The notes under the pieces: generated by a model
What the model was told of the DNA's origin: nothing
Databases searched by the model: none
Seen by the model: the letters and a program-made list of their open reading frames with translations, nothing else
From: Chrysomallon squamiferum
Lineage: Eukaryota; Animalia; Mollusca
Length of the DNA stretch: 64,000 nucleotides
Assembly (NCBI GenBank): GCA_012295275.1
Contig: CM022673.1
Coordinates: 3,410,001 to 3,474,000, forward strand
Direction of reading: 5' to 3'
In this document: positions 4,234 to 64,000 of the stretch, piece by piece
Position numbering within the stretch: the first letter of the stretch is position 1
How the letters are laid out: the number at the start of each line of letters is the position of its first letter
Translations under genes and position numbers: made by a program

Positions 4234-4267
<34 letters not shown>

Positions 4268-9328: not shown

Positions 9329-9411
<83 letters not shown>

Positions 9412-10726: not shown

Positions 10727-10791
<65 letters not shown>

Positions 10792-11415: not shown

Positions 11416-11451
11416 GATATTTTTTTATTTATTAATTTATTGTTATTTTAA

Positions 11452-11512
<61 letters not shown>

Positions 11513-11913: not shown

Positions 11914-12070
<157 letters not shown>

Positions 12071-12836: not shown

Positions 12837-12899
<63 letters not shown>

Positions 12900-15071: not shown

Positions 15072-15123
<52 letters not shown>

Positions 15124-17143: not shown

Positions 17144-17185
<42 letters not shown>

Positions 17186-23290: not shown

Positions 23291-29449
<6,159 letters not shown>

Positions 29450-30151: not shown

Positions 30152-30185
<34 letters not shown>

Positions 30186-30846
30186 TAATAATAATAATAA
30201 TAATAGTAAACTTACAGTAAGGAAACTGCTGGAAAACGTGCGCTATAAAAATACTATTTTCTTTCTTTAGCTTGTATAATATGCATTTAGTCCATACAAT
30301 ATATTCTCGCAGTTCAGGGCATGGCTCGGTTCAAATACCTGTGCATTCCTGTTCTCATATCAAATTTAGCATAATAAATATTAACCCAGATACAACATTT
30401 TATTATTTCTCCCATGTTATTAAAAACGTTATTTAACAACATGACAAGATGAAAGAGAAGCAGGTTATTCACAGCGATGAGTCAAAGAGCGTCTCGTAGT
30501 TTATTAAACAGTTCTGGAAGATCTTTTGTCCGTCCGAAAAAAATTTGTCCGTCAGAGAATAAACCTGTAGTTATTTGATCAACTGATAGAGATTTATGGC
30601 AAGAAAGCTTTTCAGCTTCACTTATTTTATGTACTTCAAATGACATTACAGAATCTAAATATACTGTCACCTGATTTTTACTGATTTGTTTATTACTGTT
30701 AGGTATGTCGGCATGCCGCAGATGTCTTCATTTTATTTTATTGTATTTTGTTTTATTTTAATTTATTTTATTTTATTTTATTTTGTTTATTTATTTATTA
30801 ATTTTTTTATTTATTTTTTTATTTTTATTATTATTATTATTATTTA

Positions 30847-30924
<78 letters not shown>

Positions 30925-33900: not shown

Positions 33901-34369
33901 TTGTTTAGAAATATCGCTATCGGAATACGCTAATGTAACATTAACTATAATTTAATACAAATATATGCATGCACATGAGTTTTCACGTGCACGCACATTC
34001 ATATTTTTGGTTCTGATTCATACTCATTATATGATATACCAAACATTTGCATATCCTTACACATACGCAGATATATACACGAATACACGCACGTTAAAAA
34101 CAAACACTATATTGTTTTTTTAACAGTTCGTCTCCAGATTTTCCGCACGGTAATTCCATAACCGTAATTTTCATACAAATACGATTATAATTCAAAAATA
34201 ATATTTACTCTATACATTAACTGAATTATCCAGTTATCAAAATAATATATTTATTATTTGTATTAACATTCCATCTTCTTTCTCTTTCAACACCAAAACG
34301 AAAATGAGTAAAAGAAGGAAAACAAAAACATTAAAGTACAGCATGAATCCAATCCATATCTTTTATACA

Positions 34370-34500
34370 CAGCCTCCCATTGGTTTCAAATTAGTGCCCA
34401 GTTCCACGCCAGTAGCTGGAGAGGAAATGATAACCTATAGGCGATATCCGGGGAGGACTTTCGTAAGGGCGGCGTTCAGTTATAACACTGCTTGCAATGC
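34370..34500 (+). promoter_or_regulatory. Putative promoter/TSS of the DSL-mucin gene (CCAAT at ~34378, Inr TCAGTT at ~34476)
   Basis: CpG-richer block highly conserved with 14380-14500, upstream of an ATG exon with a strong donor. Confidence 0.45.
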
Positions 34501-34673
34501 GTACACCACGCTGCAATAACGTTGACGACACACAGCTACAACGTAACAACGCTAAGCAGGTGCAAACAACGCGTCAGATCTCTTGTTGTTTCTAAGCATT
34601 GTGATAACACTCTGTTATTCTTGGAGTGTGCGATAGGGGTGTACACCCCTCCCCAACATTTAACTGTATTACC

Positions 34674-34712
34674 ATGTGGTGTCTTCTGGTAATATCAGTG
34701 ACAGTCACTGAG
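34674..34712 (+). CDS. Gene D exon 1 (signal peptide start [13 protein letters not shown])
   Basis: accATG context; AG|GTAAGT phase 0 joins FLVPVISSG of exon 2. Confidence 0.6.
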
Positions 34713-35034
34713 GTAAGTTTTATATATTTTTTTATTCGATTGTTTTGTGGGTGCTTTTTTGTTGTTTTTTTTTTTTTCTTTCTTTCTTTCTTTCTTTCTT
34801 TCATCTTCTTTGTTCATTTATATTTGGTTATATTTTATAACGTTTTCGTTAACAAAGGTATTTCTTTTCTTTTTTTTATTATTCATTTTCTCCTATTCTT
34901 TTTTTCTTTTTAATTTATTATAATTATAAGAAAATAAAATACTGATGACGTATTAGAATTAAAGGGAAATAACTCTATTTGATTTAAAATCTGATTATTG
35001 ATATTTTTAATATTTATTTCTGTTCATTGGTTCT

Positions 35035-35111
<77 letters not shown>

Positions 35112-37327
35112 ATCGTAGTGGAGGTGCTTCTTATAATGGATATGATGTGAGCTGTTTAAACTGCAATAATTTAATATGGAATAAATCAGGTGTGTCTCGA
35201 CACCGAATCACGGGGTGTTTTAAATACTGTAAGGAAAGCAAATAAATAAATAAATAAATAATAAAAAGACATTTAGTCACAGTTTTTACATAAAAATGTA
35301 CACAAATACTAAGTATGTGGCAAAAGACATAAATGCTCCGCTGCGGAAGGTCGCCTGATGGTTGTGATGCGTTTTTACTTACCTTGAAGAGGGGTCTCTT
35401 ATTCGCGTTTCTCTTTCGTTTTTATTTTTACATTATTTCAAAAACAATAAACACCATAAGGTAGTACACATATTCAGCTTTATCACATCATTCGTTTTTT
35501 GACATTTCATGTTTGAAAGACATCGGGGAATCAACAGACAAATTTATCATTTCAAAATGATAGTCGTGTGTCGAAGATAAGCTTACTTGAGTCTTTAATT
35601 AATCCTATACAAAATTCAAATTAGGCATTTTTATCATAATCTGCCAAATTTCATATAAACATTTAGGGTAGCAGATAATTATTTTTGGATTCCAAAACGG
35701 GTGGTGTCCACAGGAAACTACGCGAGCGAATTTTTCGTTTATTTTTCTGAGTGACCGAGTATTTATGTGGCATAAGGCAAGGAATATGTGGCATGATGCG
35801 TCTAAAGCTATCCAGAATTTATGAAAATTACGTAATTAAGGCGTACGGTAAATTTTAGCTAATTAGTGCATTTAATTAATTAATTAAAATTCATGAATAT
35901 TAGCAACTCGCTTAAAAATACTAGACAGAATTCATCAATAGCTTCATTTTGATATATAACACATGTATATTGGATTAAAACCATATGAGATATTCAGTGT
36001 TTATTTTGGAAAATGACAGCAGTGAATCACAGTTTCTCAGTAGATTATGAAGGAAAAATACTAGCCAATTTTATTGCGATAAAAATTCGTTACAATTTTC
36101 GTTTCAGTGCTATCAAAGAGATCTTGATGTCATTTAATATGCATTTTTTTCTTAGCAAAATAACAGTTTTGAACATTTTTGTAACATACCTATAAATATT
36201 TTAGGCAACATTTCCTGCATGAATTTTAAATGGTTAAGAGATTAATCAAGGTTAAAGATATTCAATAAAACGTATCTCTTTTCAACCAAGCAAGCTGTGG
36301 AAATGGGAGAGGTATCGAAACATGGCTTATCACCAAGCAATATTGTACTCCCTCAAAATGCTACTTAATTCCAAGTCTGCAGTTCGAAAAACAGTGTATT
36401 ACAGCCTATATGCTTAAGAGAGACTGAAGAAATGCAGCAAAGAAAAATCATTAGTTTAAGAAAAAAATAATAAAATAAAATAAAATAAAATAAACAGATA
36501 GATAGATACATAGATAAACAAACAAATAAACAAATATATATAAATAAATAAAAGAATAAATAAAATAAAATACTTTTTTTTTTTAAATAATAAAATAATA
36601 AATAATCAGAGAAATTATTAGGCTATCTTATATGTGTCTACATCGGTCTGCGTCTGATGAAGAACAAAAATGGAAATAATAATCATCATGTTTTTAATTC
36701 TTTGTTTATCAAATAATATAAACTGTTAAGAAAAAAAAATCAAATAAATAAATAAATAAATAAAAATAAAACAAAAATAATGATAATGATGATGATAATA
36801 ATAATAATAATAATAATAATCATAAAAGCAACAAGCAACCAAATTTATGAAAAATAATAAAAAAATTAGAAATAATAAAAATAAAGAAACAAAATTTGAA
36901 ATTTCATTAACAAAATGGAGAACAAGAGTTTACAATAACTAGAGCAAAAACATCTCATTAACAGATTATCCTGCACTTATTATGTGCTGATTCATTTTGT
37001 GCCTTCAGTATGAATTTGTAACAACTGTAAAATTTATAAACACGTTTGTTTTTTTTCACCTTCAAAATTTTGAAACATTTCGATGTATCTGGTTCGTGTC
37101 ACGAGATTTTACAATAAAAATTTAAGAATGTTCGTATTTCACGGATGTACTAATTATAGCTGTGTCGGATTACTGCTAGCCATAAGCGCACGTGACCAAG
37201 CCTTGACCTCGGCGCCAGCTGATCCGCAGTATGAAGTATGAACTGTTAAAGTACTGTGCTGAACATGCTGATTTAATTTATTTACTTTCTTTATTTTCTT
37301 TTTTCTTCTTCTTCTTCTTCTTCTTCT

Positions 37328-37373
<46 letters not shown>

Positions 37374-37990
37374 GATAATAAGTAGTAGTAGTAGTAGTGT
37401 CATCTAATGACAAGGACGACGTCAATAACAACCACAGTGATTAAAATACGAAATTCGACAACACTAAGGGACAAGTAGGTTTCAGAAAATGGGATGAACA
37501 AAACGTTAAACACGTCTGAATTCCATGCACATAGTAAGTATATCAGAATAAAGAAAGAAAGAAAGAAATTCTCCACATTGACCCAAACTGGTTTTTTTTT
37601 TTTTTTTTTTTTTTTTCCATGAGCTGTATCAGTTACAGTATTGAACCTCTGCAGGAAATAATCCTTTAAAATCTTGTTCATACTTCTTCATAAATCGTTT
37701 CCTTATTTCCACAACAAAGCAGTAGTTGTTGATTTTCATTCACAGCTCGCCCTATGCTTAGAGTACAGTTTAAACACTCGACAATAATACAGATGGATGG
37801 ATTATGCTTTGAAGGTGAAACTCTTTATCGACCAATAGGGGTCACAGGGACATACAACCTAAATTACGTACCGTAAAATAATACAAACAGATACGTACAC
37901 ACAGACAGACACACACAGCCATCAATAAAAGCTTTCAAGTATTTATTACTATTTATTTCCTCTGTTACGAGAAGTATTTTGACCGCGAGT

Positions 37991-38041
<51 letters not shown>

Positions 38042-39215
38042 CAGGTTAGAATATGCATGTTCATAAAATTAATTAGCAAATTGTGACAATAATTATTTCA
38101 AAAACAACTGTAACAATACTACATTTAAACGGGTAGCTTTATTTTATATAACATATATTTTGATTAAAGTATTAATTTAAATTTATAATTTTTTATTATT
38201 ATTATTATGATTAATTTTGTTTTTCTTTCTTTTCTCACTTTCTTTGTACTTACTTCAGTTTGTGAATAATCTGAGACAAAAACTCTTTCAGATGTCGGAC
38301 ATATGATGTCGGCAACTCCCATCCTTTCACTAAATACGACCAAACATCTGTCTATCAATATCTCCTTTCTTTATCATTTGTATTTACAAATGTTTTCTTT
38401 GACCACACCTTTTATGTGATGGTTCTTTTCTTATTTCTCGATTAGTTGAAGTTAAACGAGTGTTTGGAGAGTTTAGGAGGTCTTGACTGATATTTGTTTT
38501 TCAGATTTAAAATGTTAGTATCATTCTCTTTGCACATTATAAGTGGATATGATCTTAAATATAAAAATAAAATAAAGTACAATAGGTAAATAAGTAATTA
38601 AGTGAGTAAATTAATAAATAAATAAATACATTTATAAATATATTAATTAATTAATAATAATAAGAAGAAGAAGAAGAAGAATACTGGGAAGTTTTTTTGG
38701 GGGGTTGGGTTTTTTTTTTTTTTTTTTTTTGCCATTATTGTTTGTTGTTTTTATTACCGTTATCAGTTATCATCTTCTTCTTGTCTAAACATAATTATTA
38801 TCATTATCAAGAAGTAGATAAAAGCAGGCAAAACGTATTTATATATTTTTATTTCAACCTGACAGCCTACCATTTACCTTTCAGTCACATGTCATCTTGT
38901 ATCCTTAAGATAAATATTTACTCGATTCCCGAGAAACACGTGGCTGTAATATGTTTCGACATGCCGCCTACACGCACTGAACTGAATTATGAGGCTTTAT
39001 GCCCGTAGTTCTTAGCCACCGAGTGCAGAGTTTGTTGTACTTGGCATGTCTGCAACACGAAGACTTTGATCTCTTGAAATGACAGCTCAAACTGAATGAG
39101 GAAATGTTAAACTTTAAATGTAAAATATATAAAAATAGAAGAAAAAAAACCAAACGTAAAAAAGTAAAATTATGAAAAACTGAAATACGTAAGTAGTGCT
39201 TGAAGAATTTAACAT

Positions 39216-39282
<67 letters not shown>

Positions 39283-40070
39283 CTGAGACCCTTTTACTAT
39301 TATGTCTATTTTTGCCCGTTCGAAAGTTCCATATTTACTGGACTATTTATCCTGATTTTATTTTATGTTTTTTAATTTAGGAATACTTTATATGAGACTA
39401 CTCATATTCACATCCATTCTACAGGATGCTGATAATGCATATATTCACATTTTAAAATAATGTTTCCTTAAATGAAAGAAAATTCAAAGGAAATTCACTG
39501 CATTAAGAAATAGGTATTTGCAAGTCGAAATAATAGGTAACGAGATGTGGAAGTCTGTAAATATTCTTTGTCATTCTTTGAACACCTTATATTGGACCTT
39601 TCCCATTATTTTCTTTATGAAAACCATACTAAGCATATGACATTTGACAAATCTATTTGTTTTCCGCGACAAAACATTCACAAAGACGTTAATTCATGGG
39701 TTCTTTACTGAACGTTTTTGATTATTTCCCTTTATCAAATCGACCTCCCATGCGCAGTAATAATTTGCCCGCGTGCGACTACAAGCTCAGTCGTCTGCTT
39801 TAAACGAAGTCATAAATTTTACTGTAATCTTTGAAGTGTGTATTGTGAAATGGGGTGGATAGGTCAGACGTGGTGAAGGTTCGATAAGGTGCGACAATTC
39901 ACAGTATCTGGATATACAAAGAAAATAATAATAAATAAAGAAATCAAAATTAAAAGAACGAACATTATGTTTGACCGTACTTTATAACATCAACGAACGT
40001 AAGATTCAACATGTTGCATTAAGAGGCGAGTCCTACAATTACTGAACTAAATCAGTTTCCTAAGCTGAAT

Positions 40071-40106
<36 letters not shown>

Positions 40107-40108
40107 TT

Positions 40109-40148
<40 letters not shown>

Positions 40149-41102
40149 TTTATAATAATAACAATAATAATAATAAATAGTAACTATCAGATTATCATCT
40201 TATCTACACTGCTGTAAATTGTAATTATATAATTATGCAATTTCAGCTTGCGGTAAAGAAATCTTGATTTATTTTTTATAATTAACAAACATGAATACTG
40301 ATTTATTCAGAAGAATGTAGATTGTGTTGTACTGCGTAAATATTTAACAATTTATGTTTTGTTATTAACATTTGTATTTAGTCAAATTTATTATTTTTTG
40401 TAAACTTTATTTTTCTGTTTTTCTTCTGCTATTGGAATTACTAACAGGTGCTGAACACGTGGTTTAGAGAAAATAACAACTATATTGTTGTTTTCTGATC
40501 GCGTAAATGTTTGAAATCAAGGACTACAAGATGTAGTAAATGTTTTGCATGTGTTTAATTTGTGTGAACCTTCAGTTCTTTATCAGTGGTGGTCTGGTGA
40601 ACTTTACTGGAAGAAAACACCAGAGGCATGGTATTAATAAATATGCATAATTACATCAAAGTATGATATTTGTAAATCATATCTATATTCTATCTTTTAG
40701 GTTAAATATTTTGAATTTGGTTCAAATTTGGATTTATAATGGTTGTATAAAAGATAAAGAGAAAGAAAAAAAAAAAGGAAAACAAAAAGATATGTTGCAG
40801 TCTTTCATGTACAAATATAACAACATTATTCAGTTTTATATATATTAGATATGTTGCAGGCTTTCATGTACAAATATTGTCTAGAAGGTTGCTTTAAAAA
40901 GAAATTATGATCATCAATTAGTTAATAATCATTTTGGGCTTAAAATGTATGGATCATGCCAATCTGGAAGCAGTCTAATTTGCATCCCTTTTTGAACAGT
41001 ATTGTCATTTGTGTCTTGGTTTTTTTATAATCATATGTTTAAATTATCTAACATTTTTAAAACAATAACTCCTAACAATGTAAGTTTAAGTTTGTATTAT
41101 AA

Positions 41103-41190
<88 letters not shown>

Positions 41191-44100
41191 ATACATATGC
41201 ATATATACATACATAATCATACATACAATCATACACACACACAAACATACTTACGTACATCTACATATATGTTGTCTTGCAGAAGAATTAATGCCGTATG
41301 TTTGAGTCTTGTCAACAGCATCTGATGTTTGTGAGGTCATGATTGGACTTCATCCTTATGTGCCATGGCATTCCTGAATATTGTCTATGTGCAGAGTCTA
41401 AACAGTCATATTTAAGACAACAGAATGTTCATTCCTCAACAAACACACATGGACACACACACTAATATATAAACATGCATTTGCAGTACCAGATTTTTGG
41501 GTCAGGTAGTTTAATTTAATGTATGCAATATTATTTTTTTGTTTCAGTTTCTAGTCCCTGTTATCAGCTCAGGAGTAATTGAAACTACTTTTGTGAATTT
41601 TACAAACAATGAAGGGAAAAGATTTGATGGATCTTGTTGTGACAGATCAGGATGGGGTTGGTTTCCTGAAAAAGACTGTCACAAAGGCAATCCTTGTGAC
41701 CATAAATTCATTATCTGCATGGGAAAGAGTCCACAGTAAGTTGTAAATTAAATAAAATATACAAGAACCAAAACCCACTACTCATTATAATTTCTTATGG
41801 TGAAACTTCCATAATTTAATTTTCACATGGTCAGTTTTTTAACTTCCTGACAGAGATATGCCTTTAGATAAATTAGCACATAAGTAAGTAAATGAAATAA
41901 ACAATAACTGTGAATTTCAAAACTTAACATCTATGAGTGGATGTATATTTAGGAAACTGATGTCCAGTTAGAGCTACTGGACAAAATAGGACGATTAAAA
42001 AATTAGGTTTCTTTGAGTCAAGTGAACTCAATTAACTGTTTGAAAATAAACAAATACCTCAGATTACTTTTAGGGAAAATAATATCACTAAGCAATGCCT
42101 TAGGATGGCTTAATTGGACTTCTTACTGGACACTCATCACTGGCATTAATATTCATTTTGTATAATATGTAGAACTTTTGAATTATTTAATATCTTTAAT
42201 GAACAAATTAATATTAATGATGTAGCACATTTCACTAATATTTTTAATATGAAGTATTTTTTACTGATATTTTTAACACGAAGTTCAAAATATTTTGATT
42301 CAGATCAAGAGATGTGAATGATTGTAAATATAGCATTTTTTACTGATATTTTTATAACAAAGTTGATTCATATCAAGTGAAATGAGTGATAGTGAATGTG
42401 ACATTTTTTACTGATATTCTTAACATGAAGTTAAAAATATTCTTTTTATTCAGATCAAGTGACATGAGTGACTGTGAATATGGAAAAGAAGAAACTGGAT
42501 CTGTAGGAGGTAACGTAATCAGCTTCAATGGAAACCTTGGAGATGTGCCGAATCCTCTCAAGTTTAAATTTGATCATTGGCCTGTGAGTAACAAATTAAT
42601 TCAGAAAAATTACATTAAGCATGACTGTATGGAACACATGTATATGGAATACATGAATGTACATATATATGTCTGTTCTTGTGTGTGTGTTTGTGTTTGT
42701 GTGTGTGTTGTGTGTAATTTTGTATGTTTGTGTGTTAAGAAATATATTTGTCAGTATATATTATAATGTTTGTTTAAGTTGTTCACCTTAGTGTTACCAT
42801 TCCTATTTCAGTTTGTTTGAAAGTTTAGCTAATAGCACAAACATATCTAAATCTATCTTTATGTTTTCTTTGTTACAGTAATGAAATAATTTTGAGCTTA
42901 TCATGATTTCAGGGTGTTGTGAAATTAAAAATCGATGTGTTGGATGATGACGACAACAACAAATATGACTTTGTAGATCATTATGAATACCAATATGGAC
43001 CAAAGTTTCTTGGAAGAGAAATAGATGTTCCAGTCAGCAATTTGGTTTTGTCAGGATCTCGAACTGAGTGAGTGTTAAGATAACGAACGTTTAATCAATA
43101 AGCCAAATGTTGGAGAGCAGGGCATCTGGTATTATTTTAGTTTTTGGATGCTTCTTTCATTTTTAAATATTTAAAATAGTTTCATCATAATGGAAACCCT
43201 TGTCCTTCTGAAATACTGGATCCAGGGCTGTAACTAAAAAAAAAAAAAAAAAAAAAAACCCAGCAACAATAATGATATATGTTAATCATTAAACCACATT
43301 TCTATTTTTTGGTTATATTATTTATTAGTTAAATTTCAATTAAGAAAGATAAAATCATGATACACAGTATTTTATATAGTTCATTGATTAAAAACTTGCT
43401 TCTTTTATTTAAGTTTTAAATTATAGGATATGTTTCAATAAATCTATAAAAACCAGAACATTGTCATATATATCATAAACTGTTTCATCACAGGAAAGTA
43501 AACTGTCATATAGTTTAAAATGAACTTACGTTATCATTATTTTTCAGATTTAATCTAAAACTGAAGGTGTTTTGTGACACTAACTATTACGGTGAGAACT
43601 GTTCCACATTTTGTAAAGATGCTGATGATGACACTGGCCATTATATTTGTGATAAGACTAATGGTGCGAAGATATGTCGACCAGGTTTGCAGTTATTATT
43701 ATTATTATTATTATTATTATTTTTTAATTACTGCTGTTGTTATTGTTTGTTTCATCACAATTATTATTATTAGTAATGGTAGAAGTATTATTATTATTTA
43801 TTTTTATTTATTTTTATTTTTTTATTTTTTTAAAGGCTGGAAAGGTGACACATGTCTGATAAACATTGATGATTGTGGAGGTCATAGGTGTTATGAAGGT
43901 GCAACTTGTGTGGATCAAATTAACTATTACACATGCCAATGTCCACCTGGCAGAACAGGTTGGTCATCTATGTATTTATAATATTAAATTTTATCAAAAA
44001 CTTTTCTCCAATATATCCAAATAATTTTAAAATAATATTAAAAAATACTACCACCATCCCTGACAACAAGTCAAATATTTTAAAGTTTTAAAAAATATGC

Positions 44101-47100
44101 TCTGTTGTTATTAGACTCTGTTAATAAAAAATAAAATAAAATAAAATAAGTAAATAACTAAATAAATAATAAAAAAATAAAATAAAAAAAATCGCTACTG
44201 AGAAGATTTGAAATTTTAATTAGAAAGATGGTGTATCTTTTTCTTGCTAAATCAAAGTCATATATTACAGAATATTTAAATAAATTAATTTTCTGCTACA
44301 AACTGGCTGTTTCATAATATCAGGTGTAAAATGAATGCATAGGCCCACAGTCCAGTTTTATTTAATTTACTAAATGTATTTGATTCAGTTCAAAGGGTGT
44401 ACTTGTTGTCAGGAAAAAATGATCCCAGGTTTGTTTACTTTATGGATGTCCTCTTTATTACAGGTATACATTGTGAAGGAGAAATAAATGAATGTGCTAG
44501 TAACCCATGTCAGAATAATGGTATTTGTCGTGATGCAACATTTGGATTTGTCTGTGATTGTCCTCCAGGCTTCACAGGCCTGCAGTGCCAAGTGGAAGAT
44601 ATTAAATGCCGAAGCAACCCTTGTAAAAATGGAGTACGTTCTTTCATCTACATCTACAATATGTACTTCAAGAATCTATTTTTATTTTTTAATTTACTTT
44701 TATGTTTAGAATAACAGAAGTTGACATCTTTGGAAATGTTTCATAACTAATAATTTTAGAAGAATATGGTCAAATGTTGCTTTAGCATATTAAAGAAAGA
44801 CTTGTATTTATTAATTTTCTTTTGCAGTAATAGTTTTTAAGAGCTAATTTTTTTGATTGTTTTTCATTTATAACTAGAAAGATCATAGTTTTTAAATGGA
44901 CTGGTTTAGAATTAGCTTTTATCAGCTGAATAATTTTAAACACTAATGTTTCCTTAGACAGTTTTGTTTTAATTTGTTTATGTTTTCATCATTATCACCA
45001 TTATAATAATTATTAAGAGACTATCATCATTATCATCATCATCGTCATTATTATTATTGCAGGGTAGTTGCTATAAGAAACAAAATGATGAAACTTGTAT
45101 ATGTAAGCCAGGTTGGACAGGTAGTTTATGTGAAGATGAGATAAATGAATGTGAAAGTGCCCCTTGCATCAATGCTGTTAAATGTATTGACAAATTTAAT
45201 GATTTTATCTGTCAATGTAGCCCTGGATTCACAGGTTAGTCTTATATAAACTTTGTGTAATTTATATATAATCAGCTTTTATAATGAAATAAAAAAAATC
45301 AGATAAAATAATAACCTTTTTTAAAAATGAAAAAGATTAATTATGTTATATTTTATTTATTTTTTATTATCTCTTCAAATGTAACATCAATTTTGAAACA
45401 AAAAATTAGAACAGCCATTTGTTGTAATAATATGTTATTGTTTGCAGTGTTACTGTATTAGTGTTATCATTCCTTATGGTTTCATTCTATAAGTTTCAGA
45501 TCCTTAGATAGGTACAGAAAATTGTGATCTTCATATTTCTGATTATACAAAATAATAATAAAGTTATCTAAAAGTTCTAAACCTGGTTCTGTTTGATTGA
45601 AAAATGACAACGTTCATAGAATGACAATGTCCAGTTTGTAAAATAAAGAAAATTACCATTGAAACACTGTATTTACATGTTCCTTTTTGTCCTAGACCAA
45701 CCTCTGTATGCCACTTATATAAGATTTAAATTCCAGGAAAGCGATGTAAAGTTAATATCAATGAATGCGAAAGTAATCCCTGTTTGAACGATGGTTTTTG
45801 TGAGGATCGCGCAAACTCATACGTGTGCCACTGCAAAGCAGGTGTGACTGGCAAACACTGTGAAAACAATTTTGATGACTGTGCCAAGCATCCATGCCTG
45901 AATGGAGGCACATGTCAAGATGGATACAATAATTTTAGTTGTGTCTGTGCCCCAGGATACTCAGGTGCTCATAAATGCAGCATTAATTCCTACAAATAGC
46001 ACAGCATTATTACTAACACCTTTTGATTTCTTGCAGTGCATTGATCACAAGATAGGAATGTGAAGGACTAACATCATTGCACCAAATTATTTTCTCACTG
46101 ATCTGTCAACTGCCTAAATTACTAACCTAATAAGTAGAATTGTTTATTATGGAAAAAAAACAACAACCAACCAACCAACAATCCTTTATCAGTATCCAAT
46201 CCATACAGATTTCATACAATTGTTTTATAGTTATCTGATATGTAGGGAATCTTTTTATTTACTCTTTAATTTGCACTTACACTTTACTTATGTTAAAACT
46301 GTAACTTTAACAGGCTATATAGGCAGAGCATTATGCATAGATAGAATGGTTAATCATTAAGAATGTCAAAAGTTTATTATTTTTAAAATGATTAAATTGT
46401 TTAATAATGTTGTAACCATCTCACAGTCTTTGTAACAGTTGTTATTTTTTTCTTTCCATTATTATTATTTTATTATTTTAAAGAAATCATTGTGATTTGT
46501 TTCATTTCCAAAAAGAAGATTTTACAATACAGGAATTAACTTAGAGGGATGTATTTTTCATTGATTGTATTGTACATTAAACCTTTTTTCATGATCTTTA
46601 CAGATTATAATATGTGTGCATGCTGACTTGATTATATTAACTGAAAAAATAAAGAATATCTGTCTTTTGCAGACTATAAATATTAATTACTGACCTGCAC
46701 AAAACTGTTTAATAACACCTTAGCTCTCTGTTTGATAAGATCACAGATAATAAAAATAATCAGATTTCTTTTACAATAATCATATTTCTCAAAGCTTATG
46801 AATTATACAAATGAAATGTAACACTATAAATATTATAATGCTAATTTTTCCAGTTTGTTTTTCCATAAAGCATTTTCTGTTGTTTGTAAAAAAATATTGT
46901 TAAATGTTTTTTTGGCATGGTTTAACAAAATAACTGATACAGTATTCTTCAATACATATATAAATTTGTATATTTAATTAAAACTAAAAGAGTCCTATTT
47001 GTTCTAGTGTTATGTTATTAATGAATTTCATTTACAATATTTAATTACATCTTGGATCTCTTTTCTAATTCATTTATTTTATTATCACAGGTCCAACATG

Positions 47101-53100: not shown

Positions 53101-56100
53101 TCTGAATCACTAACAGACACTACAGAAACGGCACCAGATGAGCTTACCTCTGGAGATCACACAGAAGGGGAATCTGTCACAGAGATATCTGAATCTCCTT
53201 CTCGGAACCAACTTACAAGAGTTTTGAAACTTCAACTGTGGAAATTAAATTGCCATCTGTATCGGATATGGCAACAAAGAGAATTTGAAGAATCATCTGC
53301 CACCACATCTCTGAAACCTTCTCTGGCATGACTGATACAATTTCTACATCAATAATGGAATCACAATTTCCAACCACCTCTGACATAGCTACAAAGGAAT
53401 TTGAAGAATCATCTGGAATTACAACCGAAATTTTCCCTGAAACAGCCAAAACAAGTACAATGTCAACATCTGAAGAAGAGATTGAAAAATATTCTGGAAA
53501 AACAACAGACACATTCACTGATACAAGTGAAATGATTAAAAGTGGCGAAACAACAGTGACAATTTCTGAATCAGTAACAGACACTACAGAAAGGGCACCA
53601 GATGAATTTTCCTCTGGAGATCACACAGAAGGGGAAACTGTCACAGAGATATCTGAATCTCTTTCTTCGGAACCAACTGACAAGAGTTTTGAAACTTCAA
53701 CTGTATCGGATATGGCAACAACGGAATTGAAGAATCTTCTTCTACCACAATTGAAACATTCTCTGGCTCGAGTCATACAGTTATGACATCAAGAATGCAA
53801 TCTACATTTCCAACCATATCAGATATACCTACAGAGGAATTTGAAGAAACATCTGGAATGACAACTGAAATTTTCGCTGAAACAGCCAAATCAACTATAA
53901 TGTCAACACTTGAGAAAGAGATTGAAGAATATTCTGGCAAAACAACAGATACATTCACTGATACTAGTGAAATGACTACGAGTGGTGAAACAACAGTGAC
54001 AATTTCTGAATCACTAACAGACACTACAGAAACGGCACCAGATGAGCTTACCTCTGGAGATCACACAGAAGGGGAATCTGTCACAGAGATATCTGAATCT
54101 CCTTCTCGGAACCAACTTACAAGAGTTTTGAAACTTCAACTGTGGAAATTAAATTGCCATCTGTATCGGATATGGCAACAAGAGAATTTGAAGAATCATC
54201 TGCCACCACATCTGAAACCTTCTCTGGCATGACTGATACAATTTCTACATCAATAATGGAATCACAATTTCCAACCACCTCTGACATAGCTACAAAGGAA
54301 TTTGAAGAATCATCTGGAATTACAACCGAAATTTTCCCTGAAACAGCCAAAACAAGTACAATGTCAACATCTGAAGAAGAGATTGAAAAATATTCTGGAA
54401 AAACAACAGACACATTCACTGATACAAGTGAAATGATTAAAAGTGGCGAAACAACAGTGACAATTTCTGAATCAGTAACAGACACTACAGAAAGGGCACC
54501 AGATGAATTTTCCTCTGGAGATCACACAGAAGGGGAAACTGTCACAGAGATATCTGAATCTCTTTCTTCGGAACCAACTGACAAGAGTTTTGAAACTTCA
54601 ACTGTATCGGATATGGCAACAACGGGAATTGAAGAATCTTCTTCTACCACAATTGAAACATTCTCTGGCTCGAGTCATACAGTTATGACATCAAGAATGC
54701 AATCTACATTTCCAACCATATCAGATATACCTACAGAGGAATTTGAAGAAACATCTGGAATGACAACTGAAATTTTCGCTGAAACAGCCAAATCAACTAT
54801 AATGTCAACACTTGAGAAAGAGATTGAAGAATATTCTGGCAAAACAACAGATACATTCACTGATACTAGTGAAATGACTACGAGTGGTGAAACAACAGTG
54901 ACAATTTCTGAATCACTAACAGACACTACAGAAACGGCACCAGATGAGCTTACCTCTGGAGATCACACAGAAGGGGAATCTGTCACAGAGATATCTGAAT
55001 CTCCTTCTTCGGAACCAACTTACAAGAGTTTTGAAACTTCAACTGTGGAAATTAAATTGCCATCTGTATCGGATATGGCAACAAGAGAATTTGAAGAATC
55101 ATCTGCCACCACATCTGAAACCTTCTCTGGCATGACTGATACAATTTCTACATCAATAATGGAATCACAATTTCCAACCACCTCTGACATAGCTACAAAG
55201 GAATTTGAAGAATCATCTGGAATTACAACCGAAATTTTCCTGAAACAGCCAAAACAAGTACAATGTCAACATCTGAAGAAGAGATTGAAAAATATTCTGG
55301 AAAAACAACAGACACATTCACTGATACAAGTGAAATGATTAAAAGTGGCGAAACAACAGTGACAATTTCTGAATCAGTAACAGACACTACAGAAAGGGCA
55401 CCAGATGAATTTTCCTCTGGAGATCACACAGAAGGGGAAACTGTCACAGAGATATCTGAATCTCTTTCTTGAACCAACTGACAAGAGTTTTGAAACTTCA
55501 ACTGTATCGGATATGGCAACAACGGGAATTGAAGAATCTTCTTCTACCACAATTGAAACATTCTCTGGCTCGAGTCATACAGTTATGACATCAAGAATGC
55601 AATCTACATTTCCAACCATATCAGATATACCTACAGAGGAATTTGAAGAAACATCTGGAATGACAACTGAAATTTTCGCTGAAACAGCCAAATCAACTAT
55701 AATGTCAACACTTGAGAAAGAGATTGAAGAATATTCTGGCAAAACAACAGATACATTCACTGATACTAGTGAAATGACTACAGTGAGTGGTGAAACAACA
55801 GTGACAATTTCTGAATCACTAACAGACACTACAGAAACGGCACCAGATGAGCTTACCTCTGGAGATCACACAGAAGGGGAATCTGTCACAGAGATATCTG
55901 AATCTCCTTCTTCGGAACCAACTTACAAGAGTTTTGAAACTTCAACTGTGGAAATTAAATTGCCATCTGTATCGGATATGGCAACAAGAGAATTTGAAGA
56001 ATCATCTGCCACCACATCTGAAACCTTCTCTGGCATGACTGATACAATTTCTACATCAATAATGGAATCACAATTTCCAACCACCTCTGACATAGCTACA

Positions 56101-59100
56101 AAGGAATTTGAAGAATCATCTGGAATTACAACCGAAATTTTCCCTGAAACAGCCAAAACAAGTACAATGTCAACATCTGAAGAAGAGATTGAAAAATATT
56201 CTGGAAAAACAACAGACACATTCACTGATACAAGTGAAATGATTAAAAGTGGCGAAACAACAGTGACAATTTCTGAATCAGTAACAGACACTACAGAAAG
56301 GGCACCAGATGAATTTTCCTCTGGAGATCACACAGAAGGGGAAACTGTCACAGAGATATCTGAATCTCTTTCTTCGGAACCAACTGACAAGAGTTTTGAA
56401 ACTTCAACTGTATCGGATATGGCAACAACGGGAATTGAAGAATCTTCTTCTACCACAATTGAAACATTCTCTGGCTCGAGTCATACAGTTATGACATCAA
56501 GAATGCAATCTACATTTCCAACCATATCAGATATACCTACAGAGGAATTTGAAGAAACATCTGGAATGACAACTGAAATTTTCGCTGAAACAGCCAAATC
56601 AACTATAATGTCAACACTTGAGAAAGAGATTGAAGAATATTCTGGCAAAACAACAGATACATTCACTGATACTAGTGAAATGACTACAGTGGTGAAACAA
56701 CAGTGACAATTTCTGAATCACTAACAGACACTACAGAAACGGCACCAGATGAGCTTACCTCTGGAGATCACACAGAAGGGGAATCTGTCACAGAGATATC
56801 TGAATCTCCTTCTCGGAACCAACTTACAAGAGTTTTGAAACTTCAACTGTGGAAATTAAATTGCCATCTGTATCGGATATGGCAACAAGAGAATTTGAAG
56901 AATCATCTGCCACCACATCTGAAACCTTCTCTGGCATGACTGATACAATTTCTACATCAATAATGGAATCACAATTTCCAACCACCTCTGACATAGCTAC
57001 AAAGGAATTTGAAGAATCATCTGGAATTACAACCGAAATTTTCCCTGAAACAGCCAAAACAAGTACAATGTCAACATCTGAAGAAGAGATTGAAAAATAT
57101 TCTGGAAAAACAACAGACACATTCACTGATACAAGTGAAATGATTAAAAGTGGCGAAACAACAGTGACAATTTCTGAATCAGTAACAGACACTACAGAAA
57201 GGGCACCAGATGAATTTTCCTCTGGAGATCACACAGAAGGGGAAACTGTCACAGAGATATCTGAATCTCTTTCTTCGGAACCAACTGACAAGAGTTTTGA
57301 AACTTCAACTGTATCGGATATGGCAACAACGGGAATTGAAGAATCTTCTTCTACCACAATTGAAACATTCTCTGGCTCGAGTCATACAGTTATGACATCA
57401 AGAATGCAATCTACATTTCCAACCATATCAGATATACCTACAGAGGAATTTGAAGAAACATCTGGAATGACAACTGAAATTTTCGCTGAAACAGCCAAAT
57501 CAACTATAATGTCAACACTTGAGAAAGAGATTGAAGAATATTCTGGCAAAACAACAGATACATTCACTGATACTAGTGAAATGACTACAGTGGTGAAACA
57601 ACAGTGACAATTTCTGAATCACTAACAGACACTACAGAAACGGCACCAGATGAGCTTACCTCTGGAGATCACACAGAAGGGGAATCTGTCACAGAGATAT
57701 CTGAATCTCCTTCTCGGAACCAACTTACAAGAGTTTTGAAACTTCAACTGTGGAAATTAAATTGCCATCTGTATCGGATATGGCAACAAGAGAATTTGAA
57801 GAATCATCTGCCACCACATCTGAAACCTTCTCTGGCATGACTGATACAATTTCTACATCAATAATGGAATCACAATTTCCAACCACCTCTGACATAGCTA
57901 CAAAGGAATTTGAAGAATCATCTGGAATTACAACCGAAATTTTCCCTGAAACAGCCAAAACAAGTACAATGTCAACATCTGAAGAAGAGATTGAAAAATA
58001 TTCTGGAAAAACAACAGACACATTCACTGATACAAGTGAAATGATTAAAAGTGGCGAAACAACAGTGACAATTTCTGAATCAGTAACAGACACTACAGAA
58101 AGGGCACCAGATGAATTTTCCTCTGGAGATCACACAGAAGGGGAAACTGTCACAGAGATATCTGAATCTCTTTCTTCGGAACCAACTGACAAGAGTTTTG
58201 AAACTTCAACTGTATCGGATATGGCAACAACGGAATTGAAGAATCTTCTTCTACCACAATTGAAACATTCTCTGGCTCGAGTCATACAGTTATGACATCA
58301 AGAATGCAATCTACATTTCCAACCATATCAGATATACCTACAGAGGAATTTGAAGAAACATCTGGAATGACAACTGAAATTTTCGCTGAAACAGCCAAAT
58401 CAACTATAATGTCAACACTTGAGAAAGAGATTGAAGAATATTCTGGCAAAACAACAGATACATTCACTGATACTAGTGAAATGACTACGAGTGGTGAAAC
58501 AACAGTGACAATTTCTGAATCACTAACAGACACTACAGAAACGGCACCAGATGAGCTTACCTCTGGAGATCACACAGAAGGGGAATCTGTCACAGAGATA
58601 TCTGAATCTCCTTCTCCGGAACCAACTTACAAGAGTTTTGAAACTTCAACTGTGGAAATTAAATTGCCATCTGTATCGGATATGGCAACAAGAGAATTTG
58701 AAGAATCATCTGCCACCACATCTGAAACCTTCTCTGGCATGACTGATACAATTTCTACATCAATAATGGAATCACAATTTCCAACCACCTCTGACATAGC
58801 TACAAAGGAATTTGAAGAATCATCTGGAATTACAACCAAAATTTTCCCTGAAACAGCCAAAATAAGTACAATGTCAACATCTGAAGAAGAGATTGAAAAA
58901 TATTCTGGAAAAACAACAGACACATTCACTGATACAAGTGAAATGACTACAAGTGGCGAAACAACAGTGACAATTTCTGAATCAGTAACAGACACTACAG
59001 AAAGGGCACCAGATGAATTTACCTCTGGAGATCACACAGAAGGGGAAACTGTCACAGAGATATCTGAATCTCTTTCTTCGGAACCAACTGACAAGAGTTT

Positions 59101-60628
59101 TGAAACTTCAACTGTATCGGATATGGCAACAATGGGAATTGAAGAATCTTCTTCTACCACAATTGAAACATTCTCTGGCTCGAGTCATACAGTTATGACA
59201 TCAAGAATGCAATCTACATTTCCAACCATATCAGATATACCTACAGAGGAATTTGAAGAAACATCTGGAATGACAACTGAAATTTTCGCTGAAACAGCCA
59301 AATCAACTATAATGTCAACACTTGAGAAAGAGATTGAAGAATATTCTGGCAAAACAACAGATACATTCACTGATACTAGTGAAATGACTACGAGTGGTGA
59401 AACAACAGTGACAATTTCTGAATCACTAACAGACACTACAGAAACGGCACCAGATGAGCTTACCTCTGGAGATCACACAGAAGGGGAATCTGTCACAGAG
59501 ATATCTGAATCTCCTTCTCCGGAACCAACTTACAAGAGTTTTGAAACTTCAACTGTGGAAATTAAATTGCCATCTGTATCAGTTATGGCAACAACAGAAT
59601 TTAAAGAATCTTCTGGAACATTGACAGAAGTGTTGGATGAAAGAAGTACAACAAAATCATTAATACCCTCTGTTCCAGTGGGCAATATATCAACAACTTT
59701 CAGTCCTGAAGCTGTTGTAGAGAAAGAAACTAATTTGGAAATATTCACTCAATTAACACAACCCAAAATGGATTACAGTAAAGAAAAAGAAAGTAAGGCC
59801 ACTTCTTCTCATATCACTAAAATAATGTCAGAAATGGGCTATTCATCAGATGACCAAACAGTAAGTGAATTAAGTACAATGATGCCTTTAGAATCTCTTG
59901 AATCTGAAACAGATGCATACAACAATGATCCAACTGGTAAAGATGATGAAATATTCCTCTCTGATAATACTGTTATTAAATCAGAAGATATGGCACATGC
60001 TTATGATTCTATTATTTCTGCTGAAATGAGGATTCGTGAACAAATTAGAAACCAAACACAGGATACATCTCATGGAGAAGATAAAGTGGTAAATATTCAT
60101 AACATTGATGAAACTTTAGATGAACTTGAAGGAAGTTCTTCAGATTTGACTGCTGATAGGATAGATTCAGAGGAAGCAAAAAATCATACATCTTCATTTT
60201 CAAGGTCTTTGGCACCAAACAACCAGGAAAATTTTAGTCTTCCTCTAAGCAAATCTCTTCCAATTACTGTCTTGAAAAAGGCAGAGATGATTTTTCCTTT
60301 TCAGTCTTCTGATGAGAATCTTCTGGAAGCAACCAAGATTCCATTTGTGTCATTTTCAAACAATGACAACATTGGTGACACAGTTGTGGAGTCCAGTGAT
60401 AAATTTTCACAAACAGGTGATGTTTTGCTAGAATGTGCTCAACAGTGAGATCTTGTGCTGCCTTTTGAATAGCCTCCATGCTTCATTGAACAAATCATCT
60501 CCAACTCAGTGTTAGTACATGCTTTGTCCTGTTTTGTGCTAAATGTAGCTTATATAAGTTCTATCCACTGTACCATTTTGCTGTATTAAATGTGCATTAT
60601 ATCATGCTATCATGTCTCTGTCTCTCTG

Positions 60629-60681
<53 letters not shown>

Positions 60682-62147
60682 TTGGCTGTCTATCTGTTTA
60701 TCTTTCTGTCTATAATAGATTTGTTTATTAGTGGATTTCAGGCATTTTTATGTATGTAAAGATTTTTATTTTAAAAAAATACAGTAATTTGTTTTTTATG
60801 TAATAAATGTTTTGTGTTGTGGTTCTTTGCATGTTTATGTTTGTTCATGAGAAAAGTATCAGATAGTAATATCTAAAAATATAGATGATATTTGTTTTTT
60901 CTGATGTTTGCTAGTTTTTATATATCAAATATTCATTTTATTAAAAATAAAGTCAGAGTTTGGTAAATATATTAAGAAACAAAAATATTTAGAAGCTTAA
61001 TATCTGATATTTATATATTCTAAATGAATTACTTTCATTGTATTTAAATCTGTGACAGTATGATATATGTATGTATGTGTTGTATATGTATATATGAGAT
61101 AAAGTATGGATTAGATATTTCAACTGATTTTATTTAGTTATTTATATATAATTAATATATACAATTGGGACCTTTTTATCAGGGTTGTTTTGTATTTGTT
61201 TGTTTTGGATGTTTTTTGCTGATTTTTGTCCACATTTTACATTACATATTTTCTTATTTCAGTGTTAATTCTGTCTTTTATGACATACTAACACCTTTTT
61301 TAAACATAGCCAAATGTTAAGTAGAGCATATCTTTGTCATTTAAATATGATAGAAATTGTCTATAAATTTCTTACATTTATTTTGTAATACATATTTCAA
61401 TATTATTGCTATACTTGACACTAATATGTATGCGTGTAGCACACAAAATTTTCTGTTTTCTGTTTTATTTTGTAATACATATTGAATATATTACATATTT
61501 ATTATAATTATTTATTACATATTATCTTGTGCTTTTTATGTTGCATGTATACAGTATATATATTTCTTTTTGTTGTGTAGTGTTATAGTTTTTATTGATG
61601 AAGAAGTTTGTTGCCTATGTTCCTTCTAGTCTCCAAAAGCTAAATAAATTGAAGCTTTCTTTGAAATGCTTGTGCTTCTTATTTTACTTTTTTCAGTACC
61701 CAAATGAATATGATTGGCTGATACTTTATACTGCTTTACAAAAAAACTCTGAATGTTTTTTGTATTAAAACATGTATTTAATATCTGATAAATTAGATGT
61801 TTTTATTATCTGACATGATTATGATAAAGTATCTATAATACATTTCTTCTAATTGTAAGATAAAGATTTGAAGTAAACAAATATATTCTAACTGAATTAC
61901 TTTCATTTCTTTTATACTGTATTTAAATTTGTGACATTGGAAATATAAAAATATAATACTTTGTCTACACTGCAGTAACGTTTCTTTTAATTTAAAACAA
62001 TTTTACAATAATAAAGTTAAGAGTACTGGTATTTTGTTATATTATTTCTGATGTTTTTTGTTTTGTAAGAAATACTTATTTCCATATTTATTTATTTGAT
62101 TACTTATTTATTTATTTATTTATTTATTTATTATTATTATTATTATG

Positions 62148-62191
<44 letters not shown>

Positions 62192-64000
62192 ACTTCAAAA
62201 ATCAAATTTACTTGTTTAAAACAATTGTTTTTTCTTCTTTATCTTATAGGTAAAACAACCTTAATGGATGGCCTGCTAGGAATCACAGACATAACATCTG
62301 ATGACGATATTGCCACCAGTGGTGAAGTCAAGATGATAGGTATGACATTACATACACGTTCCCGTGACACTAGTGACAAAACGACTAACAAGGCAGACGA
62401 AATGACCACACAAAGAGTCCCCTCACACACACTTGGTGTTTCAGGTACATCACACCCATCACTTATTAGAACAGAAACAGAATTCATCACAAAAGTTTCA
62501 GGTGATGAGAAATCAACAGCCTTGATGCAGTCAGATAAAGCTGCATTATTCACAACAGCAGCAACACCTGATGTTCAAGGAACTTCATTTTCTGATTTCA
62601 GTGACCAGACTTCAACTGATGGAGTGACATATGTTACTCTGAGACAAAATACAACAGAGTTAATTTCAGATGTCACTGAGGATCTGTTTGACTGGCAGGT
62701 AAATGGAACTGAAAATACAGATCTAACTCCAGTATCCATGCCAACAACCAAGCAGACAATATCAGACAAAAGTGAGACCATGCCTTTAGAAACAAAAATA
62801 TTAGAAACATATGTTTCTGAGAATTTTACAACTGTGTCACCAGATTTAAGAGACAAGCTTTCATATAGCACAGAAGTATTTACTCAGGCTTCTAATTTAA
62901 GTGATGTAAGTACCATGGAAACTGGGATCATTAACATTACTATGGATAACACAAATGATGATATTACTGAGAGCACAACAGAGTCAATGTTTTCAGATAC
63001 TGCCAGTAATGATAGCAAGACTGATGAAGTTACATCTCTGGCAACAACAGAAACACTGATATCAGAGGACAACCCAACTGCCACAATTTTTTCAGATACA
63101 GCTGCTGATAACATCACATTATATTATACAGCAAGTGTTAATGATTCATTAATGACTGATAGTACAACTACAGTAGATATAACATCACTGAGTAATGATT
63201 CAAGTAGTGAAAGTTTATCATCCATATCGGTGTTTACCAACACAACAGAATCAACAGTAGAAAGTGTGACAGAGAAACAAACAGGTACAGTTACATCAAC
63301 AGATATTTTTGACAATATATCAGATTCACCTGCAATTAATGCCACCACTGAAGATACGGAAACCACAGAATATAGTACAAGCACTGAGAATATCACAACT
63401 ATTGAATCTAAAAGTATAGGATTTTCAAATGTAACTGGAGATGCCTCAACATCTTTTAATCATAACGATACACTGATAACTGAAATTCCCAGTACAGAAA
63501 CGATATCAGGCACAACTGGAGAGCTGAGTACTTCATCTCTAGAAAGTGTGACAGATAATCAAACAGGTGCAGTAACATCAACAGAAAGTTTTGCCAATAT
63601 AACAGATTCACCTGCAATTAATGCCACCACTGAGAATATCACAACTATTGAACCTAAAAGTATAGAATTTTCAAATGTAACTGGAGATGCCTCAACATCT
63701 TTTGATCATAATGATACACTGATAACTGAAATTCCCAGTACAGAAATGATATCAGACACAACTGGAGAGCTGAGTACTTCATCTCTAGAAAGTGTGACAG
63801 ATAATCAAACAGGTGCAGTAACATCAACAGAAAGTTTTGCCAATAAAACAGATTCACCTGCAATTAATGCCACCACTGAAGATACAGAAACTACAGAGGA
63901 TAGTACAAGCACAGAGAATAGCACAACTACTGTATCTACTGAGACAAAAAGTATAGAATTTTCAAATGTAACTGGAGATGCCTCAGCATCTTTTGATCAT
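34674..64000 (+). CDS. Gene D (3'-partial, spliced): Delta/Serrate-like C2(MNNL)-DSL-7xEGF-mucin protein; exons 34674-34712, 41548-41735, 42454-42583, 42913-43067, 43548-43684, 43836-43958, 44464-44633, 45063-45234, 45737-45964, 47091-47264 or -60416, 62250->64000
   Basis: All exons join in frame with canonical sites. Motifs include SSGVIE...GSCCD...CDHKFIIC...[13 protein letters not shown] (MNNL), [14 protein letters not shown]...GHYIC...[14 protein letters not shown] (DSL), Ca-binding EGFs and an S/T/E-rich stalk. Confidence 0.85.
35110..36420. mobile_element. Probable non-autonomous transposon-derived insertion in intron 1 of gene D
   Basis: Present only in duplication copy 2, next to (AG)n; complex non-coding sequence; no TIR or transposase identified. 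Confidence 0.3.
41548..43067 (+). CDS. Gene D C2/MNNL domain exons (41548-41735, 42454-42583, 42913-43067)
   Basis: Notch-ligand N-terminal motifs and an acidic loop [15 protein letters not shown]; phases 0/2/0/2 are consistent. Confidence 0.85.
43548..43958 (+). CDS. Gene D DSL domain and EGF1 exons (43548-43684, 43836-43958)
   Basis: Six-Cys DSL pattern, then NIDDC cbEGF. Confidence 0.9.
44464..47264 (+). CDS. Gene D EGF2-7 exons (44464-44633, 45063-45234, 45737-45964, 47091-47264)
   Basis: Notch-type EGF repeats EINEC.SNPC.N.G.C.D....C.C.PGFTG..C. Confidence 0.92.
47265..60416 (+). CDS. Giant acidic mucin-like (S/T/E) exon extension of gene D, ~4,400 aa if indels are corrected
   Basis: Long S/T/E-rich ORFs 47183-48046, 48351-50174 ... 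58292-60448 broken by small indels; phase-1 donor ACAG|GTGATG at 60416. Confidence 0.72.
48400..59600 (+). repeat. Coding tandem array, 903-bp (301-aa) unit made of 462+441 bp subunits, ~12.4 copies
   Basis: The marker CCAGATGAGCTTACC recurs 13 times from ~48621 to ~59450 at ~903 bp spacing. Confidence 0.95.
62250..64000 (+). CDS. Gene D second mucin exon ([11 protein letters not shown]...), open to the window end, with N-glycosylation-rich repeats
   Basis: Acceptor ttcttttatcttatag|GT, phase 1; T/S/D/E-rich open frame; absent from the ORF track, consistent with no stop before the edge. Confidence 0.8.
63250..64000 (+). repeat. Second coding tandem repeat (~246-282 bp units)
   Basis: GAAAGTGTGACAGA...ACATCAACAGA recurs at ~63260, 63542 and 63788. 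Confidence 0.85.

Follow-up and report, generated by a model that had tools for sequence, protein, structure and literature searches.

A C2-DSL-EGF head joined to a long, splice-variable glycan-type stalk in the mollusc Chrysomallon squamiferum

The window analysed here is a stretch of 64,000 nucleotides (nt) from the mollusc Chrysomallon squamiferum (assembly GCA_012295275.1, contig CM022673.1, positions 3,410,001 to 3,474,000 of the forward strand); its DNA is AT-rich (about 30% GC) and rich in microsatellites. From position 34674 onwards its plus strand carries a gene whose product begins like a Notch ligand of the Delta/Jagged type and continues into a very long stalk rich in serine, threonine and acidic residues; an earlier note on this DNA had described it as a Notch-ligand head on a mucin stalk. 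Domains were called on exons and reading frames with Pfam, and hydropathy was calculated in Kyte-Doolittle (KD) windows of 19 residues, with Notch transmembrane segments (3.17 and 3.45) as controls. Part of the interval 47091-48300 was contained in nine public sequencing runs, two of which (X4 and X7, both from one study) are recorded as RNA.

The head is encoded by ten exons with GT-AG ends between 34674 and 47264, which together give 505 codons for a hydrophobic leader, a C2 (MNNL) domain, a DSL domain and exactly seven EGF repeats. On these exons Pfam recognised EGF domains together with MNNL (E 9.7e-6, above the cut-off) and DSL (E 2.1e-11), and the head was found spliced on single RNA contigs of 1483 nt (X4) and 1646 nt (X7), as expected from the sum of the exons; the contigs show six GT..AG joints, and two more were deduced from record coordinates. 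The head is thus intact, as the earlier note had claimed. The first coding exon (34674-34712) starts the leader, a putative signal peptide (KD 2.13 over residues 1-19) that is spliced onto the C2 exon; the X7 head contig starts within this exon, its loose end before 41546 matching 34681 onward. One X4 contig joins 41548 to the 3' end of an alternative upstream exon (39859-39888, plus strand, donor AAG/GTGCGA, the slash marking the splice point). Read by hand, this exon has a stop in the coding phase, which points to a leaderless or non-productive transcript.

The C2 domain begins in the exon at 41548-41735, which encodes a Trp-rich loop and the equivalent of Jagged1 D72, is recognised by Pfam as MNNL, and is joined in RNA to the second C2 exon (joint 41735→42454; exon 42454-42583, Pfam and RNA contigs). 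The third (42913-43067, RNA contigs and alignment) encodes an Asp-rich loop in which the Jagged1 D140 equivalent is retained, and the exon at 43548-43684 completes C2 and encodes the DSL domain, with Ala at the R203 position and Thr at the F207 position. EGF1 (43836-43958; Pfam, RNA and alignment) is a full-length classical repeat and not of the short DOS type. It is followed, on Pfam and RNA evidence, by EGF2 with the first half of EGF3 (44464-44633), the second half of EGF3 with EGF4 (45063-45234), and EGF5 with EGF6 (45737-45964); EGF7 and a linker (47091-47264) terminate in an internal donor, TAG/GTAAGA. Four O-fucose and four O-glucose consensus sites lie in the EGF repeats between 43836 and 47264, so that the protein could be a substrate for Notch-type glycosyltransferases.

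Only one splice out of EGF7 was observed, and it was present in both RNA runs: 47264→62250, which skips 15 kb including a 13-kb acidic array. Loose ends past 47268 in both X4 and X7 match 62254 onward, and the 1646-nt X7 contig recurs at 62247-62340, indicating that the donor at 47264 is spliced to 62250; a 1127-nt X4 contig opens with the end of the EGF7 exon. The product has an open frame of 1,089 codons up to the window end. The second stalk exon (62250-64000, plus strand), supported by RNA contigs and its frame, contains a 246-nt repeat from 63382 and encodes 583 amino acids (aa), of which 37% are Ser or Thr and 17% Asp or Glu, with 26 N-x-S/T sites; a 30-nt probe from it had no match among metagenome contigs. 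Within this exon, one X7 contig leaves from a second internal in-phase donor (TAG/GTATGA, 62337-62345, plus strand) at 62339, and its 27-nt loose end has no match within the window, the target exon lying outside it. Use of this donor suggests a third, nearly stalkless form. The X4 depths, which are rough, divide from 17.5 on the head into 12.3 on the skip and 6.35 on the read-through, suggesting that the skip is the commoner form.

The skippable read-through block (47265-60448, plus strand, defined by RNA contigs and frame) is acidic and Ser/Thr-rich, comprises about 4,390 codons as assembled, and ends in a TGA at 60446-60448. It is represented in RNA: X4 contigs cover 47239-48268 at a depth of 6.35 and 59553-60337 at 4-5, X7 pieces have depths of 6.9-7.8, and both unique flanks of the array are thereby covered at depths of 4-8. 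The array itself (48307-59615, plus strand), about 12 copies of a unit of 903 nt or 301 aa identified by repeat analysis, appears in both RNA runs as a collapsed contig of 933 nt (903+30), at depths of 226 and 143. The adjoining intron (60449-62140) is free of RNA except for one dispersed repeat; as DNA runs do cover the same stretch, DNA contamination does not explain the RNA on the block.

Each array unit is made of halves of 441 and 462 nt, and its length is a multiple of three and free of stops. Threonine makes up 24% of its residues, serine 17% and glutamate 17%, and 10 of its 13 glycines lie within Ser-Gly; these 10 Ser-Gly sites compare with 2.2 expected, a count reached in none of 2000 shuffles. 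A Pfam match of the array to Ilar_coat had no matched stretch and was rejected as compositional noise. As assembled, the block is broken by an extra base at 48012/48013 and by 25 indel bases in the array units. The extra base (plus strand) is absent from all four runs compared and is a false frameshift; once it is removed, the open frame reaches into the array, over 1,026 codons. The small indels occur in 10 of the 11 units compared, 16 of the 25 bases in homopolymer context, while the units differ by 4-6 substitutions, and they resemble the errors of long reads that have not been polished. Relative to the flanks, contig depth on the unit, which is not the same as copy number, was about 38-44 times higher in X1 and 22-27 times in X3, whereas some 12 copies are assembled; the ratios suggest a two- to fourfold excess of copies over the assembly, unequal in the two DNA runs. 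The array is possibly collapsed or polymorphic, and the depths hint at a longer true array.

Since the array is also present among the RNA contigs, if at lower depth, and the break at 48012/48013 is an assembly error, a minor isoform of at least 4,900 aa that reads through the block is likely. The claimed stalk of about 5,000 residues stands as far as the frames go (about 4,390 + 583 codons, about 4,970 aa), but a single product of that length is apparently the minor form; continuation from EGF7 into the mucin is seen as read-through RNA at lower depth, whereas the only splice seen in the two runs skips the array. A proposed joint, 60416→62250, was found in no RNA contig; a candidate in-phase donor (CAG/GTGATG, 60414-60422, plus strand) is present in the sequence, its use not observed. 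RNA cover ends at 60337 in X4 and at about 60226 in X7, before the stop at 60446-60448, and neither the lack of cover over 60338-60448 nor that of the joint is proof that the joint goes unused. A candidate poly(A) signal, ATTAAA at 60585, would suit a transcript ending at the stop and, given the fading cover, the long form may simply end there. At the other edge of the block, the 72 nt at 47265-47336, in frame between the EGF7 donor and a CAG that follows a pyrimidine run, could be a small intron; the X4 contig retains them unspliced.

Relatives of the gene were found in molluscs. With the first C2 exon as query, HMMER found 12 hits among 1.84 billion representatives, the seven named ones all from molluscs; a word-index search with the same 62-aa exon returned nothing. 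Long proteins gave 47 hits, 43 of which were driven by the EGF repeats (EYS, Notch, SVEP1), while four extended over the complete head. These are single models from Potamilus (4,721 aa) and Sinanodonta (4,792 aa) and a pair from Mya (5,291 and 3,190 aa) that are near-identical over long stretches and were counted as one gene. In total, eight named species have relatives, all molluscs: four bivalves (KAK3591884 from Potamilus, KAL3842380 from Sinanodonta, XP_052799319 and WAR03023 from Mya, KAL5007532 from Solemya) and four gastropods (XP_071099151 and XP_067654361 from Haliotis, KAG5689564 from Batillaria, BFZ05216 from Bradybaena), the gastropod models being fragments. The automatic names of these models are Delta-like, serine-rich adhesin-like and fibropellin-like. 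A nine-row alignment and tree, two rows of which are the same Mya gene and from which P0011 (off pattern), P0004 and the canonical Delta/Jagged ligands are left out, does not place the window gene in a mollusc class. In P0011 (381 aa) a second C2 comes after C2-DSL-EGF, another kind of non-canonical use of this module.

Head identity among family members is 46-61% (eight complete-head rows), and the database models share the head signature of the window gene; the bivalve giants also have its block order, with 9-15 EGF repeats by pattern count in bivalves against its seven. The three full-length bivalve models share one order: the head, a Ser-Gly-rich acidic block, a Ser/Thr-rich block with N-glycan sequons and a conserved end of 150 aa. 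The block after the EGF repeats is enriched in Ser-Gly in all four relatives tested (99, 100, 76 and 50 sites against 31, 31, 22 and 13 expected), and a second block poor in Ser-Gly follows in all four, as in the window gene. BLASTP of the 62250 exon against the stalks of six relatives gave no match at E<1e-3; the stalks cannot be aligned across species, so that composition and order are conserved rather than sequence. No transmembrane segment follows the EGF repeats in any of the three full-length models (maximal hydropathy 1.03-1.46, against the Notch controls), and in the window frames no 19-residue window after the leader exceeds 0.76, in line with the absence of a transmembrane segment from the window stated in the earlier note.

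The bivalve C-terminal end (27-61% identity) is predicted to form two long helices, amphipathic and basic, and is closed by a stop in L001. Its hydrophobic moment of 1.18-1.24 exceeds all 300 shuffles in each of the three proteins (shuffle maxima 0.95-1.04). The structural model of this domain has low confidence (pLDDT, a per-residue confidence score, of 56), its fold matches are generic long helices only (Z up to 10.2) with Atlas hits below 0.85, and a Pfam match to Apolipoprotein (E 0.002, two of five rows) is a lead only.

The face with which the Jagged1 DSL domain binds Notch comprises F199, R201, R203, D205 and F207 (PMC3415683), and the corresponding residues in the window DSL are F, K, A, D and T. 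Across the nine rows, the F207 position is occupied by Thr in eight and Arg in one, never by Phe, and R203 is retained in one; both residues were present in the alignments of DLL1, DLL4, Jagged1, fly Delta and Serrate that were examined. In Jagged1 the F207A change lowers Notch binding to background (PMC3888931). The short DOS-type EGF1-2 that would follow the DSL domain (as defined in PMC3415683) is also absent. The six DSL cysteines and the YYG motif are kept, and the predicted model of the relative P0003 matches the structures of DLL1, Jagged1, DLL4 and Serrate (Foldseek E 1e-19, identity 22-28%). In the C2 domain, the equivalents of the Ca2+-binding D72 and D140 of Jagged1 (PMC3888931) are kept, with Asn at the D144 position. 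At least two Trp residues occur in the loop between C2 strands 1 and 2 in 12 of the 13 rows matched, while the DLL1, Jagged1, fly Delta and Serrate loops compared contain none. Loops of a similar kind in other C2 domains insert into membranes and, by analogy, the Trp-rich loop may do the same. Taken together, these features suggest that the product is probably not a Notch activator.

We hold with moderate confidence that the gene encodes a secreted, membrane-binding proteoglycan or mucin rather than a Notch activator, with a Ca2+/Trp C2 head and a stalk whose length and glycan load splicing would control. The leader would direct the protein out of the cell, where Ca2+ bound to the two kept aspartates, together with the Trp-rich loop, would dock the head on a phospholipid surface, and the EGF rod would act as a spacer. 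Glycosaminoglycan chains may be attached to the Ser-Gly/acidic block (about 120 sites as assembled), and O- and N-glycans to the second block, the stalk thus forming a hydrated polyanionic spacer. In bivalves the terminal amphipathic, basic helical hairpin might self-associate or bind lipid. Competition between the in-phase donors at 47264 and 62339 would determine how long the stalk is and how much glycan it bears, in the manner of the versican glycosaminoglycan exons; the proteoglycan-like feature, clustered Ser-Gly in acidic context, does lie within the splice-variable block.

Several points weigh against this interpretation. Glycan attachment, lipid binding and secretion are deduced from sequence, and the C-terminus of the gene lies beyond the window end. 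X4 and X7 stem from a single study and are assembled contigs, their depths rough and their strand and tissue not given; the read-through contig, found in X4 only, overlaps EGF7 by 26 nt before the donor, short of the bridging rule of 31 nt, and a few intronic RNA contigs occur at depths of 2.5-4.25. Among the records searched, those with the helical end are bivalve models and unnamed marine entries, and no gastropod record has it. Finally, D205 is kept in all nine rows and an aromatic residue at 199 in eight, and sponge Deltas, usually taken as ligands, also have no F207, so that its absence is compatible with binding to mollusc Notch.

A more far-reaching version is put forward only tentatively: that an old, sponge-type C2-DSL module, separate from Delta/Jagged, serves as the Ca2+/Trp membrane anchor of a giant Notch-independent proteoglycan of gastropods and bivalves, with at least three donor-switched stalk lengths, the longest of which, given an array that seems collapsed as assembled, may in this animal have more than 10,000 residues. 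The Amphimedon Deltas have Thr at the F207 position, an Asp-rich C2 loop and a Thr-Gly-His signature (PMC5356439 supplement 6), and as they share the DSL signature the head may represent an ancient type and not a Delta that has decayed. Co-option from Delta is therefore not shown. The matrix, mucus or glycocalyx reading of the earlier note fared better, since head and stalk lie on one X7 contig and the bivalve layout is the same and free of transmembrane segments. EGF7 was found spliced into a stalk exon rather than a transmembrane exon, and the array is transcribed.

Alternatively, the protein might act as a secreted decoy or modulator of Notch: held in the matrix, its head would bind mollusc Notch and block or tune the signal without pulling. 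This we regard as unlikely, although the complete C2-DSL-EGF fold resembling DLL1 and Jagged1, the kept cysteines, YYG motif and D205, and the Thr-Gly-His signature common to sponge Deltas speak for it, as do the natural secreted DSL ligands of C. elegans; in Drosophila and vertebrates, activation requires endocytic pulling on the cytoplasmic tail (bioRxiv 2021.02.11.429991). The replacement of R203 and F207, the missing DOS repeats and the conservation within the family of the Trp loop and acidic C2 loop instead of the Notch-binding face argue against it. The long-reach or decoy ligand first proposed is accordingly weakly supported at best, as the relatives also have no endocytic tail.

Two further explanations are each rather improbable. 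In the first, the 13-kb block would be an intron, either retained or nascent, and the sole protein would consist of the head, the 62250 exon and downstream exons; that the skip is the only splice observed, that the 3' end of the block is joined to nothing in any contig while its cover fades before the stop, and that some intronic RNA contigs exist would all fit. Yet the frame is open through both unique and repeat parts, RNA covers the array with both its flanks and not the adjoining 1.7-kb intron, the unit keeps to multiples of three without stops, and the relatives encode an equivalent Ser-Gly block. In the second, a ligand on an adjustable stalk is anchored in the membrane in this species through a transmembrane exon past 64000. 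The C-terminus lies past the window, the loose end of X7 does show that a downstream exon exists outside it, and the gastropod models are fragmentary; however, a helical domain without a transmembrane segment closes the three full-length bivalve models as well as two partial records and L001, and the Notch-binding face is degenerate. A molluscan proteoglycan of the Eyes shut/Spacemaker type (EGF array, glycan-rich middle, LamG end) is very improbable: EYS proteins dominate the EGF-driven hits and an EGF array before a glycan block is a similar layout, but EYS N-termini contain neither MNNL nor DSL, LamG is present in the EYS control P0020 and absent from the full-length relatives, and the best EGF matches are not colinear with EYS or Notch, on which ground a derivation of the EGF array from either was also rejected.

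The favoured reading, of a proteoglycan or mucin rather than a ligand, can be set beside known systems. With Delta, DLL1, DLL4, Jagged and Serrate the gene shares a hydrophobic leader, C2, DSL, EGF array, D72 and D140 aspartates and fold; it differs from them in its seven classical EGFs without the DOS pair, the replaced R203 and F207, the Trp-rich C2 loop, thousands of glycan-type stalk residues, and the absence of a transmembrane segment in the window and in full-length relatives. Gel-forming mucins are defined by VWD domains and a cystine knot, for which no Pfam hit was obtained on the window frames or the full-length relatives. Jagged/Serrate have 16 EGF repeats and a VWC domain; no VWC hit was found on the window exons or relatives. 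By the definition of Gazave 2017 the gene has the MNNL/C2 and DSL domains of a Delta but fewer than the nine EGF repeats required; the definition also asks for a signal peptide, for which the hydrophobic leader is a candidate, and for a transmembrane segment with an intracellular domain, neither of which is seen in the window or in the three full-length relatives. That work (PMC5356439) names a "DSL-like" class, set aside unanalysed, and these proteins and the sponge Deltas likewise carry C2-DSL with extra regions; its sequence file, searched with five family motifs, yielded no molluscan member. Mollusc Delta2 (He et al. 2021, PMC8166818) is also a mollusc-specific DSL protein and is said to have no transmembrane segment; compared by description only, it differs in being stalkless and shorter than Delta1 by early termination. 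It may be the same as truncated models of the present family, which may bear on novelty. Seven Deltas were reported in Lottia, and missing transmembrane segments were ascribed to annotation faults (Gazave 2009, PMC2770060).

Versican and the other hyalectans are alike in having a globular head and huge, Cys-poor central blocks of acidic, Ser-Gly-bearing sequence that are included or skipped by splicing, and in versican V0-V3 a splice-tuned stalk works likewise (PMC4859157). The window gene is no hyalectan: neither it nor its relatives gave Pfam hits to the Ig/link G1 or lectin G3 domains, and it skips via internal 5' donors instead of cassette exons, so that the likeness is one of analogy only. 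Eyes shut/Spacemaker ends in LamG, found in none of the full-length relatives. In the literature searched, mostly outside subscription journals, no description of a DSL head with a glycan-type stalk was found, and the available text of PMC12166595 does not mention mucin.

The gene thus encodes a real, expressed and conserved DSL-domain protein, for which the matrix or mucus reading is favoured over the ligand reading. A mollusc-wide family filed as Delta-like, fibropellin-like or serine-rich adhesin can inflate counts of mollusc Notch ligands. With its lipid-binding features kept and its receptor face altered, it offers a natural test of the role of the ligand C2 domain without Notch, and it points to a versican-like, splice-tuned polyanionic scaffold as a candidate for mucus, glycocalyx and shell-matrix proteomes.

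Upstream of the gene lies a degenerate tandem copy of the head (13712-20754, plus strand), recognised by sequence comparison and in DNA runs, within a tandem segmental duplication of 9352-20754 against 28926-47818. The copy has no C2 exon 1, EGF1 exon, EGF5-6 exon or array, and carries a stop and a frameshift in C2 exon 3 and a 1-nt insertion in EGF7; its private indels appear in DNA runs, so that it is real. It was rejected as the source of the spliced RNA, as the contigs contain three exons missing from it. Its five surviving exons (16049-20100) differ from those of the gene by 9 mismatches over 782 nt (98-99% identity), and its introns are 84-90% identical, with near-identity extending some 40-100 nt into the introns that flank these exons; judged from sequence, this looks like patchy gene conversion centred on the exons. 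Ig and TSP1 exons lie at 8485-9494, at 25011-28412 (with an internal duplication) and at 26678-27163, all on the plus strand, probably parts of an adjacent Ig-TSP1 gene that was included in these duplications. A gene on the minus strand has TSP1 and VWA exons at 531-923 and 4190-4984.

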